In this document: positions 6,220 to 61,056 of the stretch, piece by piece
How positions within the stretch are numbered: position 1 is the stretch's first letter
Layout: the number at the start of each line of letters is the position of its first letter
Assembly: GCA_964016885.1 (NCBI GenBank)
Contig: OZ024745.1
Span: forward strand, 51,522,001 to 51,586,000
DNA from: Eledone cirrhosa
Taxonomy: Eukaryota
Direction of reading: 5' to 3'
DNA length: 64,000 bases
Program-made: the position numbers and the translations under genes
The notes under the pieces: model-generated
What the model was told of the DNA's origin: nothing
The model's input: the letters and a program-made list of their open reading frames with translations, nothing else
Database searches by the model: none

Positions 6220-8940
6220 AGTATTTACCTATCAAGAGAGAGAAAAAAACGGGGATGATAGGTGATACATATAGTTATTTGCCAAGTAGTGTATGCCAAA
6301 GGTGCTCGATACTAGTGCCGGCAGTATTAAATATTCGAAGTGTTAATATTTAGTTTGCTAGAGAGTTAGTAGAGCGTAAGCACGTGGGAAAGTAAGAAAT
6401 CGGAGAATAGACAGTTAAAACATGTTTATTTAAAACAGCACCTACGTACGTTTCGCCCAGTGTGGCTTCTCAAGGGAATAAATAATCAAAAGTGTTCCTT
6501 ACATTGCTCGGAAAGAGTTTTTGGGGTTAAATCCACGTCAAGGTTCATTGCTCGCAAAAATAACTTGTTTTGATGTTGCAGCAGGTCAAGGGAGGTAACT
6601 CTGGCCGGTTTAAGGCAGTCTTTCCCGGACAAATGTTTTTATCCGCTACGAGATGAGGTTTCAACCTTACCATTGTCGATACGCATGTAATCAACGCTTA
6701 TTTTGAGAGTTCTTTTTCGCCGCATCTGTTTGTCTGAGTCGTTTGAAGCTGGGTCTGGTATGCAAGGATAGTTTCCTGGGTGTTATTTTGCAGATCCTGC
6801 CCGCCGGGGTGTTAAGACATGTTGCAGGGAGATCCGGTGCACGGTTTCACTCCTCATCCTTAACCCATCTGAAGAAGGATATTTTTAAGCGATGTGTACA
6901 AATTATCACTGTTTCAGCTCTGTTGATGAGCTCGTGGGGTGCAGTTATGATGTGGTAGAGCTCCATGAGGCAAAGATCGCATTTCCTCTTGAAGTTGAAC
7001 GGTGCAGCCCTGCCGACCATATCCCAATGCGTGGAGAAGCTGATGTTTAAGTCCTTTAGTGATGTGATGTAGTCTGCGAGCGAAGTGGAGTGTCTTAGTT
7101 TTTTATTTGTGAAAGAGTGGAGATGTGTTCGAAACCTAATTTTGAACGGGCCGGAGGTAGCCTCTATATAATGTTTAACGCTATTGTGGCTAGTTATAGT
7201 GCATCTATATATAACCCTATCAGTCAAGCAGTATCCTCTAAGGGGGCAGCGTCCTCTGTCGCAGCAGTTGCAATTTCTGTCGCGGTTCCGTCTATTTCCC
7301 ACGGTAAGGCTATCATTGTTGCTGTCTACGTTATTACCTACGCTACTGCAGCTGTCGTTAGCACCATTACAACCCACAGCACGCGGGCTAGTGCGATTGT
7401 TATTCCGCATGTCATGTCCTGCATGTTCCCCAGTCATTTCACGGTTATGCTGGTTGCGTCTGCGGATGCCGTTGCCAACACTATTGGATACTACTAGGGA
7501 GTTGTTAAGGTCGATATAGTTATTGTCATGTGTAGGTGCGTCTGTGTCGAGGTGCTGTGTCTTGGTGATCTTACTGTGGTTCGTTGTTCCTATGATGTAT
7601 GCTAGGTTAAGAGTAGTAGAGAAGGATATTTTTATATTGTTCCTATTAAGAATTTTTCTATACCTATGGTTGGGAGGGAAGTTCTTCTCTAAGGCTTCGA
7701 AGAACGTCCGGGGTAAGTTGGAGGCCACACTCCGAGAGTAGGGAAGGGGGGAACCATAGGACGTTACGGTGGCGATTACGTGTCCTTGTACGTTTGCTAC
7801 GGGTGGTTCCATCTAGGTGACCGCTCTTATGTGTCTTAATGCACAGTCGCCCGTTCAGTGCCCCTTTCACTTTATGCTCAGGTGCACTCTTCCTACCTCT
7901 TCCATGTTTATGTACAGGAAGATGTTGGTTGGAAGGCGTTGGTAGTAGGCCGTCGCCTTTGTTGGTTTTGTAATAGGGGAATAGTTCGAGTAATCTACAG
8001 TGGTCACCGTCGCTGGGGTCGTGATATTTAGTGCGGTTATCTATTCTGTTATATCCCACTTTAACGAGGTCGTCGCGTGATCGGTTATAGGTATGGCTTA
8101 CTATAACGTTCGCTTTATTAGGGGGTTGGTTTCTAGAGCTAGCGTTAGGGAGGTAGGAAATTCCTCGGTTAAAGCCGGCGCTTATCAAGGCCTTATTGTA
8201 GTAATCTGCCGCTTGGTTGAAGATATCCTCATTGGCGAATAGTCTCGAGATTCTATGTGAGATACTATAGACTATGGAGTTGAGAGTCTGCTTAGGGTGG
8301 TTTGAGGCATAATTAATATAAGAGAGACACTCTCCAGGCTTATGGTATGGCTTGTATAAGCCCGTACTCAACTCCAGGGTCACGTCCAGGAAGTTGACAA
8401 CCCTGTGGTTAGATCCATAGTTACGGATAGGCCGTATGACTTGAAGAACCTGTGTATGTGTTTGTTAAGGTTCTCTATCCTACGGGGGCTATGGTTCCTA
8501 ACGGTAAACAGGGCGCCGTCCCTATATACACCTCCTTGTAGGGACGGTATCTCTTCCCTAAGCTTAATCAGGAGGTATATCCCAACCAGGTCTGTTGCTT
8601 GCGCTGAGTCACTGGACCCCATCGTGACATCGAAGTTATCAGGACGGTTGGTTCTGGTCCAGTGGGAGCCTCCGAACTGGATAATGGTTCTACGCGCCAC
8701 TAGAACTATGTCTATTTCTTTTTTAGTGAGGCTAGTGTTAGATTTAGCTAAGATAAGTGCCTTATTTAAGAGTATGGGGGAGATAGGGGCGTAGTAACTA
8801 TCTCTGTCAAACTGGATGAACTGGTGGCTTTATCCGGCAACTCGGTGAACCAATTTATGATCTGGTCGGTGTTGCTCCAGAGGCATACCTTAGCCTTTCT
8901 ATTAAGCTCCAGTAGTACTCTGTCGAGGATCACTTTACTA
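6220..8940 (-). mobile_element. Penelope-like element copy 1, 5'-truncated (RT + GIY-YIG + 3' pseudo-LTR), abutting (TA)n
   Basis: Frameshifted ORFs 8766-8954, 8380-8700 (FDVTMGSSDSA; catalytic YRDD decayed to YRDG), 7664-8383 (KPYHKP..SNHP) and 6847-7812 (CNCCDRGRCPLRGYC, VIY..HYIE, CDLC, CTH). HHR and AATAAA follow in the 3' region. Confidence 0.93.
6441..6476 (-). ncRNA. Minimal type-I hammerhead ribozyme, U3-A8 core variant
   Basis: Minus strand CC-UUGAGAA-GCC(ACACUG)GGC-GAA-AC(GUAC)GU-A-GG. Stem III is palindromic and AATAAA lies about 10 nt downstream. Stem I is only 2 bp. Confidence 0.7.
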
Positions 8941-9580
8941 ATATATACAGACATGTATACAGACGTACAGAAGTATGTATATATATATATACATATATAT
9001 ATGTGTGCATGTATGTATATATATATATATACATACTACTGTACGTCTGTATACATGTATGGATGTACGTATACATACTTATATTTAAGTAACAGCCGTA
9101 CTTAGAGTGAGAAATCAAATTTCGTTTCATTTTTTCCGTTTATCGTTTTCGGTACCTCGGCCGATTAACTCACTCGATATGCACATTAGGCTGTTCAGCC
9201 GTTAATATGCATAAGGAAAGTATATACTTTCAGACGTTCAATCATCTGGCAGGAAGGTATATGTTGCTGACGATAGCTAATAAGCTTAAAACTAGTACAG
9301 CATTCCTTTGTCAGTGTTGAACAAATGAGCAAAGATGGTTGCTAGACACTGTACGGCTTAATTCGGGATGTTTGTTTACAAACACACCAAGCATTATAAT
9401 AAATGTTCGGTGAATCCATACGTACATATATATATGTGTGCATGTATGTATATATATATATATATATACACATACTACTGAACGTCTGTATACATGTATG
9501 TATGTCCGTATACATACCTATTTTTAAGTAGCAGCCGTACTAAGAGTGAGAAATAAAATTTCGTTTCATTTTTTCCGTTT
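8941..9580 (+). mobile_element. HHR family B non-coding repeat, ~1.4 tandem units (period ~433 nt), with a short 5' inversion
   Basis: gtgtgcatgtatg...tttccgttt occurs at 9003 and 9436. 8950-8985 is an inverted copy of ~9025-9060. Homologous to 39057-39965 and 56693-57420. Confidence 0.8.
9261..9303 (+). ncRNA. Hammerhead ribozyme family B, G12A decayed copy
   Basis: AUGUUG-CUGACGA-U-AGC(UAAUAA)GCU-U-aAA-ACUAGU-A-CAGCAU; 6-bp stem I, but GAAA has become AAAA. Confidence 0.7.
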
Positions 9581-9634
9581 ATATATATATATATATATAT
9601 ATATATATATATATATATATATATATATATATAT

Positions 9635-9995
9635 AGGGATAACAAGTTATCGTTATAGGTAATCCACTTAGAGGTTGTGAGTACTCTGCGTCGTTTAACG
9701 TACGGCTTTTTTTGACTCAACAAGTTGCTTCCATAGTTATGCAGCGAGTTCGCGGTAATTTGTATTCAGGTTATACATGGAGTAATAATAGTTAAAGAAT
9801 GAAGATTAACATGGTTGGCTGTACATATCTACATGCTCTGATGTGTTGACCATAGGGGAATAATGTATTGGAGATCGAATATCGCAACATCAAACGATTA
9901 GCGAACTCTAGACCCACATGATCAACGAAACAATTGTCAGCACTTTAAATAAAGCCCTTATTGTACAACCAACCATGTTAATCTTCATTCTTCAT
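9635..9995. mobile_element. ORF-less PLE family C pseudo-LTR pair in inverted arrangement, within (TA)n
   Basis: 9635-9825 is homologous to 28538-28740. The ~31-bp segment aagaatgaagattaacatggttggctgtaca (9795-9825) is inverted at 9962-9992. An HHR lies in the + arm. Confidence 0.75.
9834..9942 (+). ncRNA. Hammerhead ribozyme family C with ~82-nt stem II domain
   Basis: UGCU-CUGAUGu-GUUGA...UCAAC-GAA-AC(AAUU)GU-C-AGCA; this copy carries an A9U change. Confidence 0.7.
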
Positions 9996-59909: not shown

Positions 59910-59976
59910 TATTTTATCTGATGAGGACGTACTGTTGAAGTTAACTCAGTACCTTTGAAATATGTAAAATAAAATA
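59910..59976 (+). ncRNA. Decayed hammerhead ribozyme, family A-like
   Basis: UAUUUUAU-CUGAUGA-...GUACUG..CAGUAC...-GAAAUAUGUAa-A-AUAAAAUA; stem I resembles family A, U16.1 is lost. Confidence 0.55.
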
Positions 59977-61020
59977 TACTTCATCACAAGAATAACTATT
60001 TTGTTAATATTTTGATTTAATATACATACACAAACACACACACACACACACACACACACATATATATATATATATATATATATATATATATATATATATA
60101 TATATATATATATATATATATATATATATAATATGTAAGAGGTGTCTATAAGTATACTTAAATATATACTTGTGTATATCAATCCATACAAAGATACGCA
60201 CGTTATGTATATATATTTATGTATGTGGACAGTATATATATATATATATATATATATATATATATATATATATATATATATATATACGCACGTTATATGT
60301 ATATATGTATGCGGGACAGTGTATTTAATAAACTGTTATTCACATATTTTTGTTAATCAGTCACTGTCACAGATTACCCACTATATCGGTCAGTTTATTG
60401 GAATTAATATAAGACGCATAATATTACTCACTTGGAAATTATCCAAATGTGTGTTTATTTACACAGCTAGTCAGTGAATTCCATTTCTTCTGCACTCTTA
60501 TCAATAACATATGTCAGATTCTTACACTCTTTTGATGAAGTTACCAATGTTTTACTCATTATCATTGTAATAACCATCGTTATCCACATCTTATATATCG
60601 ATGTTATTTTTTCATTAGTTCTACTAGTTCTACAGCGATAATTATTACTACTACTATTGTTACTGCTGCTACTACTAATATAAAACTAAACTACACTATA
60701 TTTTATAAATATATATATATATATAGCTTCGTACTTACATGCACACACACTCTTTTACTCACATATACACACACATTCTTCTTACGGACGTATAATAACA
60801 CACACACAAGCTTATGCATGTGCACAAGTATAGCTCTTTTTACAAAACGTTATTTTTTTCCATTTCAGGTAGCCGCGTCCATAATCCACTTTTCTAAAAA
60901 ATAAATCATACACAAAACGCCAGCACCAACAGTTTTGCAAGAGATATCAACATGAATGGACCTCTTATTTTTATCTAAAGACATTTTTTCCAATTCCAAC
61001 CTGCCCGTCCTCTCATTCTT

Positions 61021-61056
61021 TCTTCTGATGAAGGACTAGCGTGCGAAACGATAAGA
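61021..61056 (+). ncRNA. Degenerate minimal hammerhead-like motif
   Basis: UCUU-CUGAUGA-AGGAC(UAGC)GUgC-GAAACGaU-AAGA. A related tail fragment (gtccgaaacgt...cctgatatat) lies at ~46766-46840. Confidence 0.4.

Follow-up and report, generated by a model that had tools for sequence, protein, structure and literature searches.

Hammerhead Motifs and Their Carriers in the Window

The stretch of DNA considered here, referred to as the window, comprises 64,000 nucleotides of Eledone cirrhosa (GenBank assembly GCA_964016885.1, contig OZ024745.1, positions 51,522,001 to 51,586,000 of the forward strand) from a genome of 2,996 Mb in 1,796 contigs; its guanine + cytosine (GC) content is 34%, and (TA)n and (CA)n tracts are abundant. 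It carries numerous hammerhead ribozyme (HHR) motifs, which lie for the most part in the 3' ends of Penelope-like elements (PLEs) assigned to the Hydra clade, a group with hammerheads that includes Hydra-1_Obim of Octopus bimaculoides (Craig et al. 2021, PMC8557442; bioRxiv 10.1101/2021.04.23.441226). A preceding sequence-only reading had listed 18 type-I hammerhead folds in about ten families, with stem II domains of about 12 to 82 nt. By site-by-site matching a hammerhead-shaped motif was recovered at all 18 coordinates, eight of them on the minus strand, and the measured stem II domains are indeed 12-82 nt long; the motifs belong, however, to 12 multicopy repeat families, namely seven PLE 3' ends (A, C, D, G, H, I and J), two families of units without an open reading frame (ORF) (B and E), and C2, F and K. 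All 18 sites are confirmed as hammerhead-type motifs, and their self-cleavage is a prediction from sequence.

The fold is present at every site, but nine of the 18 copies carry damage or aberrations, a point that the sequence-only reading had missed. Core, H17 and stem I are intact in nine copies (6441, 22989, 28764, 30054, 40652, 41176, 55215, 55417 and 57093), stem I having merely 2-3 contiguous bp at 6441, 28764 and 30054. Six copies are damaged in families whose majority sequence is intact (G12A at 9261 and 49067, A9U at 9834, stem I at 39692, U16.1A at 59910 and 61021), and three show family-wide aberrations: G17 at 24476 (18/18 copies), U4A at 54951 (50/60) and C3.A8 at 58390 (35/37). 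A type-I core (CUGANGA...GAAA...UH, or its U3-A8 covariant) around a three-helix junction is found in the majority sequences of A, B, C, D1, E, F, H, J and K and in sampled C2 copies, and is lacking in families G and I and in motif D2.

Family A (6225-8945, minus strand) is a 5'-truncated Hydra-clade PLE with a frameshifted reverse transcriptase-endonuclease (RT-EN) ORF (8380-8829, 7664-8464 and 6847-7812), whose 3' end adjoins (TA)n at 6123-6218; its HHR (6441-6476, minus) has the U3-A8 core variant UUGAGAA, a stem II of 12 nt, stem III ACGUACGU and only 2 contiguous bp in stem I. Slightly more than one 467-nt tandem unit of the ORF-less, retrozyme-like family B lies at 9041-9574 (plus), with an HHR (9261-9303) of stem III ACUAGU and the copy-specific G12A damage. 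It is followed by the HHR of C2 (9834-9942, plus), an older relative of family C, with an 82-nt stem II, stem III ACAAUUGU and the copy-specific A9U. Family D (22920-26855, minus) is a Hydra-clade PLE with RT (25614-26855) and EN (24911-25711) in separate frames and (TA)n (22602-22887) just past its end. It bears an intact HHR, D1 (22986-23051, minus), with a 12-bp stem II and stem III ACCACUGGU, that is, 4 bp on each side of one central base, and a second HHR, D2 (24473-24538, minus), which has the family-wide G17, shows disruption of both stem II and stem III, and is probably impaired. Family C occurs as an inverted PLE insertion (28545-30209) with microsatellites on both flanks, in which a minus arm (28545-29880, with an EN remnant at 29689-29862) meets a plus arm starting at 29884; its HHR (28764-28869, minus) has an intact core, an 81-nt stem II and stem III ACAAUUGU, and recurs as an inverted copy at 30054-30159 (plus).

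Further to the right, a family B unit with inverted fragments (39077-39965) contains an HHR (39692-39734, plus) with an intact core and a copy-specific break of stem I. About 2.4 tandem units of 524 nt of the ORF-less family E occupy 40606-41862 (minus), with a fixed 3' end at 40606 beside (TA)n; the HHR at 40652-40734 is intact, with a 50-nt stem II, stem III ACUAAUUAGU and U17, the second tandem copy (41176-41257) is also intact, and a third (41676-41756), absent from the earlier list, has lost its 5' core (all minus). A remnant of family F (49051-49196, plus) holds an HHR (49067-49154) with a 57-nt stem II, the family stem III ACAAUUGU and the copy-specific G12A. Family G (52471-55098, plus) is a Hydra-clade PLE with a frameshifted RT-EN (52471-54015) next to (TA)n at 55112-55184, and its HHR (54951-55001, plus), with the family-wide U4A core (CAGAAGA), a hairpin stem III and U17, is judged by its sequence to be of doubtful activity. 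Family H is represented by the 5'-truncated end of a young autonomous PLE together with its own fold-back inversion (55189-55606), with (TA)n on both flanks; both of its HHRs, on the inverted arm (55215-55285, minus; 36-nt stem II, stem III AUGCGCAU) and at 55417-55487 (plus), are intact. The remaining carriers are a partial tandem of family B (56685-57403, minus) with an intact HHR at 57093-57135; the 3' end of family I (57719-58491, plus; (TA)n from 58497), whose HHR (58390-58484) has the family-wide C3.A8 core, a 56-nt stem II and a hairpin stem III; the 3' end of family J (58740-60023, plus), split by an unrelated repeat, with an HHR (59910-59976) of 32-nt stem II, family stem III AUAUGUAU and the copy-specific U16.1A; and the HHR of family K (61021-61056, plus), a damaged copy of a classical minimal PLE hammerhead with family stem III ACGU and G10.1-C11.1. 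From about 51400 to 60300, PLEs are nested within PLEs in (TA)n tracts. The summed spans of the hammerhead-bearing elements, nested repeats counted, make up about 29% of the window.

Detection and Chance Level

The main scan employed an exact-core type-I descriptor which allowed a stem II of up to 110 nt. It gave six matches in the window against a mean of 0.03 and a maximum of one per shuffle in 30 local dinucleotide shuffles, so the motif density of shuffled DNA is far lower, as the sequence-only reading requires. With one core mismatch allowed, 11 matches were obtained against 1.6 per shuffle (12 shuffles, maximum 3), and the three of these 11 which fall outside the 18 sites look like chance matches. 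An Rfam scan returned no hammerhead family among the best 150 of 297 matches, where AT-repeat miRNA-like noise was found.

Other copies were collected by one DNA search of the same genome for each family except K, of which bystander copies turned up in 6 of 200 loci; each search gave 1,108-4,070 first-look candidates, of which 40 were scored. The exact core is retained in most copies of B (35/40), E (17/22), H (40/41), J (25/28) and K (4/6), in 10/22 copies of F and, two motif types being pooled, in 11/32 of D. Family C passed in 1/27 copies because its 3-bp stem I is under the threshold and A in 0/24 because its core is U3-A8, and no copy passed in G (0/34) and I (0/30).

Carrier Elements

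The PLE origin which had been proposed is borne out by the linkage of RT or EN sequences to seven of the 12 families, although the ORFs in the window and the Hydra clade had been overlooked. Frameshifted ORFs with RT and GIY-YIG motifs occur at three places, 6847-8829(-), 24911-26855(-) and 52471-54015(+), with further PLE ORF fragments at 3612-3872, 29689-29862 and 55922-56506; those at 55922-56506(+), which is ended by a family B insertion, and 3612-3872(+) are Hydra-type EN/RT fragments without a downstream hammerhead. By loci, linkage amounts to 16/20 for A, 20/20 for D, 12/20 for G, 10/25 for C and 7/20 for I, bystanders being possible in some cases. Family I carries a Hydra-type EN, and for J a Hydra-type EN lies upstream in a single locus, L215, with L173 and L177 providing the bridge. 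Family F is old, with about 85% identity among copies, and no ORF was seen in the seven of its loci inspected with about 5 kb upstream. The description of the whole set as PLE-dependent ribozyme elements lacks support in that form, since most motifs are truncated or inverted 3' ends of autonomous PLEs and only B and E are shown to be ORF-less.

The PLEs of the window are mostly of the Hydra clade, as judged by motifs and by-eye comparison with published Hydra proteins, in which the RT motifs of family D resemble Hydra-1_Obim; a named relative from Argonauta hians shows just 38% identity. A CxCX5C linker and a C-terminal EN without CCHH are found in A, C, D, G, H, I, J and the fragment at 55922-56506; DKT instead of DKG is present in D, H and the family of locus L313, the region being missing in the other truncated copies examined; and insertion is at (TA)n. 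The family H unit, at 3.9 kb, exceeds the size of generally under 3 kb given for the clade, which in the paper is a tendency and not diagnostic. Outside the window, a family with a stem II of about 105 nt is likewise Hydra-type (L313 and L261). Assignment to the Naiad clade was rejected, as the EN is C-terminal and HHRs are present.

The complete element is best seen in family H. Locus L201 contains a pseudo-long terminal repeat (pseudo-LTR, 1747-2256), an open ORF of 809 aa and a second pseudo-LTR (5658-6166), and in L314 three hammerheads with a period of about 3,937 nt surround two ORFs. Among 105,922 first-look protein candidates, 53 of 56 scored full-length copies are open, 16 of them with the top score. 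The 809-aa protein was modelled with a predicted local distance difference test (pLDDT) score of 86, and its best structural matches are telomerase RTs (TERT); a telomerase-like RT and a GIY-YIG domain share a single ORF, as in PLEs. Pseudo-LTRs from partial tandems, inverted 5'-truncated copies and a one-ended tail, also PLE features, are seen in L201, L314 and families C and H. Pfam gave no RT or GIY-YIG match on 14 window ORFs or on the full H protein, its GIY-YIG model matched just 4 of 61 relatives of that protein, and PDB sequence searches returned no match; the identification is made from motifs and fold. A MITE-like (miniature inverted-repeat) palindromic nature of family H was rejected, because the centre varies from copy to copy and other copies run into the full ORF.

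The units of B and E have tandem periods of 467 and 524 nt, a longest ATG-initiated ORF of 20 and 53 aa, respectively, and one type-I HHR each, and gave no PLE protein match; from their DNA tandem structure they appear retrozyme-like. An autonomous partner was sought for E, and an 81%-identical relative was found inside the ORF of another PLE and not downstream of it, so none is established. Locus L271:636-2274 is another retrozyme-like tandem, with a 592-nt period, a U3-A8 core, a 57-nt stem II and a ACUACGUAGU palindrome. In family D each 3' end bears a pair of hammerheads, separated by 960-1,558 nt of microsatellite-rich DNA (window 22986-24538(-); L084, L088, L092 and L094-L097), with D2 and its fixed G17 (18/18) upstream and the intact D1 with A17 (9/9) downstream.

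The Long Stem II

A motif survey of 293 loci gave 304 distinct motifs in 57 clusters, of which six were judged to be chance and 51 were kept. The stem II domain is longer than 30 nt in 31 of these 51 clusters and reaches 114 nt, and 115 nt in one copy. Helices I and II are supported by covariation across copies in the F group, the J/H group and the group with a stem II of about 105 nt, and weakly so in group C; double changes occur in 15/21, 10/21 and 10/40 stem II pairs of the first three, respectively, and their covariation scores exceed those of all 500 shuffles and all slid controls. In folding, the long stem II gave z values of -0.4 to -9.4 against shuffles, below -2 in 9 of 16 cases.

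Two structural details were observed. A stem II of 97 nt contains a three-way junction, kept in L257:8130-8265 and L285:6986-7121, whose palindromes differ at four positions. In five divergent families (L108:1533-1629, L031:778-878, L287:320-421, L025:2266-2368 and L283:7425-7524), the helices of F-type stem II covary and flank a 4x4 internal loop, in which A-N-U-Y faces Y-G-A-G; a likeness to loop A of the hairpin ribozyme was considered and rejected because the G of that loop is not conserved.

Stem III Palindromes

Most stem III segments had been described as palindromes, which is correct for 11 of the 18 window copies in the perfect form and for 14 of the 18 at the level of family self-complementarity, the exceptions being D1 with a 9-nt quasi-palindrome, D2 with a broken one, and G and I with ordinary hairpins. 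In the survey, a strict palindrome is found in 37 of the 51 clusters, with 21 different sequences of 6-12 nt. When stem III was left unconstrained, 24 of 34 matches in 39 regions were palindromic, against 0 of 12 in 20 shuffles.

The innermost pair of the palindrome covaries: in one set it is AU in 6, CG in 1, GU in 1 and UA in 1 (n = 9), and in a second set UA in 6, UG in 6 and CG in 2 (n = 14). As this pair covaries in spite of being loop-less and unclosable in a monomer, it supports dimer cleavage, with which the palindromic helix III had been said to agree. Moreover, the family with the 97-nt stem II changes its palindrome from ACAAUUGU to ACGGCCGU, and C3-G8 to U3-A8 covariation is seen in several clusters. 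In folding calculations, a monomer of B, H, C or A closes helix III only at an unfavourable energy, and the palindrome duplexes have energies of -4.8 to -10.5 kcal/mol; except in D1, G and I, the palindromic helix III is of the kind which cannot be closed in a monomer.

The aberrant cores (C3.A8 in I, 58390-58484; U4A in G, 54951-55001) co-occur with hairpin-type stem III. The generalization that a monomer-capable stem III always goes with a damaged core fits G, I and D2 and was rejected because it fails for clusters 12, 16, 36 and 43. The stem III loop of family I holds a GAGCUC palindrome in the family majority. It is pure speculation that an A-to-I edit at A8 of family I would restore a C3-I8 pair.

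Genome-Wide Density

Density was estimated from forty 10-kb regions at round coordinates of large contigs, an arbitrary and not a random choice, with a descriptor whose core included U3-A8. These 400 kb gave 67 matches, of which 48 were kept after 18 from one AT-rich satellite and one other had been dropped, against 0-6 in 400 kb of shuffled sequence. The satellite (L278, G000:C7:30000001-30010000) mimics the U3-A8 descriptor 18 times and is a source of false positives. By the same descriptor the window has seven motifs per 64 kb, so the hammerhead layer, which had been called dense, is dense in absolute terms, at about one motif per 8 kb, and the window is typical of its genome and not unusually dense in them. 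ORF-bearing copies, on the other hand, are over-represented in the window (5-6 fragments, against 4 of the 40 regions). The size-weighted estimate for the genome is 3.6e5 intact-core motifs (bootstrap 2.2-5.1e5), of which about 6% may be background. A homology-based count (80 sites, 6e5; window 23) was discarded, because a single false library member raises it and it favours the families of the window.

Published counts amount to roughly 2,000 for Schistosoma, 4,000 for coelacanth and 9,000 for Xenopus (PMC4209133), and the largest one found is 126,247 for axolotl (PMC7229834), whose genome has 28 Gb; the gap to the present estimate is overstated, since the published descriptors are narrower. 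It had been anticipated that short-helix descriptors would miss the long forms, and this proved right: the min-HHR descriptor, re-implemented from the published passage, gave no match in the window and none in the 40 regions, one reason being that it restricts stem III to 4 nt, and a short helix II fits only 12 of the 48 regional motifs. The general canonical descriptor used by Craig et al. would catch the short-stem-II forms.

Insertion Pattern and Proposed Mechanism

The source loci are tandem, either as HHR-ORF-HHR(-ORF-HHR) with a 3.9-kb period (family H) or as the ORF-less 467- and 524-nt units of B and E; L201, L314 and L310 are tandem master loci. The insertions have 3' ends fixed about 12-223 nt beyond the cleavage site, cleavage positions being approximate, and (TA)5 lies within 300 nt downstream of 42/49 motifs, against a background of 27%, and upstream of 27/49. 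In inserted copies the cleavage site is still intact, and most of these copies are truncated at the 5' end or folded back; in the fold-back inversions the centre varies between copies and the inverted arm lacks the last 90 nt. Because the insertions read through the cleavage site, their template was uncleaved or re-ligated.

These observations are best explained jointly by tandem PLE sources, palindrome-dependent dimer cleavage, internal start of reverse transcription at (TA)n and a stem II that serves as an arm, an account which we consider probable on the present analysis. Two hammerheads of one transcript would pair their palindromes, whereby both helices III form and both hammerheads cleave to release a unit RNA, which may be circularised; the RT-GIY-YIG protein would then nick (TA)n and start reverse transcription at an internal site of an uncleaved or re-ligated template, and nearly every insertion would deposit one hammerhead or an inverted pair. 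The long stem II would be a docking or protein-binding arm aiding folding rather than a spacer. There are precedents for dimer-dependent PLE hammerheads (PMC4209133), for internal RT initiation at the tail (PMC11167929), and for retrozyme circles and protein ligation to circles (PMC7229834).

Several points weigh against this account. D1 folds as a complete monomer at minimum energy, E closes helix III alone at 2.5 kcal/mol above the minimum, and hairpin-type stem III occurs in about 10 of 51 clusters. The pair-shuffle control behind the covariation scores takes no account of relatedness, the alignments scored are those from which the structures had been derived, and family C taken alone shows little covariation (2/29 pairs). 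Families G and I with fixed aberrant cores, and D with the G17 of D2, have spread all the same, D having also the intact D1, so that an intact core is not required for spread; G17 impairs minimal hammerheads and is tolerated in tertiary-stabilised ones (PMC3884650). In addition, for the one PLE studied in vitro, that of the anole, cleavage was dispensable for insertion, the activity was protein-dependent and no RNA-seq reads ended at the site (PMC11167929), and eight of nine Xenopus retrozyme dimers remained uncleaved (Li et al. 2026, 10.64898/2026.07.22.740005). The dispensable, protein-dependent cleavage of the anole PLE would suit a fold whose main role is to signal RNA dimerisation or protein loading to the RT-EN, cleavage being slow, protein-gated or incidental. 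Likewise, the anole protein is predicted to be a dimer (PMC11167929), G and I have spread with aberrant cores to more than 1,000 first-look candidates each, the cleavage site is intact within inserted copies, and a long conserved stem II is suitable for protein binding. Yet the exact catalytic core across about 50 divergent clusters, the C3-G8/U3-A8 covariation and H17, features which the descriptor itself required, point to selection for catalysis, and we regard a mere signal as unlikely.

It is less likely still that the ribozymes cleave as monomers, with tertiary contacts of the long stem II offsetting a weak helix III. D1, G, I and several other clusters are able to form helix III alone, the published Hydra HHRs are drawn as canonical monomers with a 4-bp helix III and a loop of 1-3 nt (PMC8557442), and conservation extends to the long stem II; a palindrome that lacks a loop and covaries at its centre pair would, however, be of no use to a monomer, and palindromes occur with long and short stem II alike. 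That the motifs are chance hairpins in AT-rich repeats, or palindromes acting at the DNA level, for example as nuclease sites, is largely refuted and very improbable: AT-rich satellites do yield false matches, 18 from one region, and loose descriptors give 1.6 matches per shuffle, but there is an approximately 200-fold excess over shuffles, the palindromes have a fixed place between GAA and H17, and G-U wobble substitutions accompany the covariation of stems I and II.

If the preferred account of dimer cleavage at tandem sources is carried further, this genome would bear hammerheads at the highest density reported to date (about 3-4e5 intact cores, about 120 per Mb), tolerated through dimer dependence, with palindromes as pairing addresses and stem II as an RT-binding arm, an extension put forward very tentatively. 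Were it true, the diverging 6-12-nt palindromes would restrict cross-activation, both from one family to another and inside long host transcripts. The long stem II, branched in some cases and equipped with a conserved internal loop, would combine with the telomerase-like RT into a ribozyme-RT ribonucleoprotein module. That ACAAUUGU or AUAUAUAU is common to many families speaks against a strict pairing code. The findings also suggest that published descriptors badly underestimate genomic hammerheads in such genomes (0 versus 48 in 400 kb). They suggest, too, that the Hydra clade, of which few families have been described, makes up an important part of this genome and was active in it recently. 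At a density of one motif per 8 kb, it may also be asked how host pre-mRNAs avoid being cut, and the natural series of palindromes and stem II forms, together with young family H (at least 53 open full-length ORFs, tandem sources), makes the role of PLE hammerheads testable.

Other Repeats in the Window

An unrelated SINE-like (short interspersed element-like) repeat of about 200 nt is present in about a dozen copies with 80-93% identity (11436-11638, 12432-12541, 15652-15808, 15968-16121, 21121-21471, 22339-22481, 39998-40193, 44907-45036, 47546-47723, 49433-49677 and 59065-59313), for which ARAGORN called no tRNA gene. A palindrome at 61510-61877, with 184-nt arms 95% complementary around (AC)(AT)(TG) microsatellites, is probably another fold-back insertion.

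Comparison with Known Systems

PLE hammerheads, their dimers, the Hydra-clade link, near-palindromic stems III of 9-10 nt and retrozymes are already known. A literature search on Octopus or cephalopod hammerheads and on extended or longer helix II gave no relevant paper, and no report was found of a long covarying stem II in animal PLE hammerheads, of loop-less palindromes of 6-12 nt or of this density, a matter on which Lunse et al. 2017, cited in a review for minimal PLE hammerheads acting as dimers, may bear. The elements of the window are like the Hydra clade as given by Craig et al. in having a single RT and C-terminal GIY-YIG ORF, DKT, CxCX5C, no CCHH, (TA)n targets and a 3' HHR, and the HHRs share with the published ones the frequent U17, a U-U pair position at the stem II base and a stem III of 9-10 nt in which 4 bp enclose a loop of 1-3 nt, as in D1; the motifs are not the minimal type-I HHRs with which they had been compared. 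The published clade has a small set of families, elements of less than about 3 kb and tabulated stems II of up to about 25 nt, whereas here at least eight ORF-bearing families touch one 64-kb window, the unit of H measures 3.9 kb, stem II attains lengths of up to 115 nt and may be branched, and stem III is mostly a perfect palindrome of even length. Two plant PLE-X motifs with a stem II of about 50 nt are marked as deviating in the same paper (PMC8557442).

With the minimal PLE hammerheads (Cervera and de la Pena 2014, PMC4209133) the motifs have in common type I, the palindromic helix III, U3-A8, mostly solitary truncated copies, opposite-strand pairs 100-700 bp apart and many families per genome; those hammerheads have a palindrome of about 4 nt, a helix II of up to 7-8 bp, a loop of up to 10 nt and about 2,000-9,000 copies per genome, and only family K has their shape. 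B and E are like animal non-LTR retrozymes (PMC7229834; Li et al. 2026) in their ORF-less tandems with one type-I HHR per unit, a GC content of 36% and PLE co-occurrence, and their unit lengths are within the range of 51-972 bp of Li et al. 2026 (10.64898/2026.07.22.740005), where retrozymes are treated as PLE derivatives. Unlike retrozymes, they carry long palindromes of the PLE type (E with a 50-nt stem II as well), (TA)n insertion and PLE-type inversions; most motifs of the window are not retrozymes. Consequently, what is found in Eledone cirrhosa is a known system, Hydra-clade PLE hammerheads with retrozyme-like units, in a new structural form and at high density.

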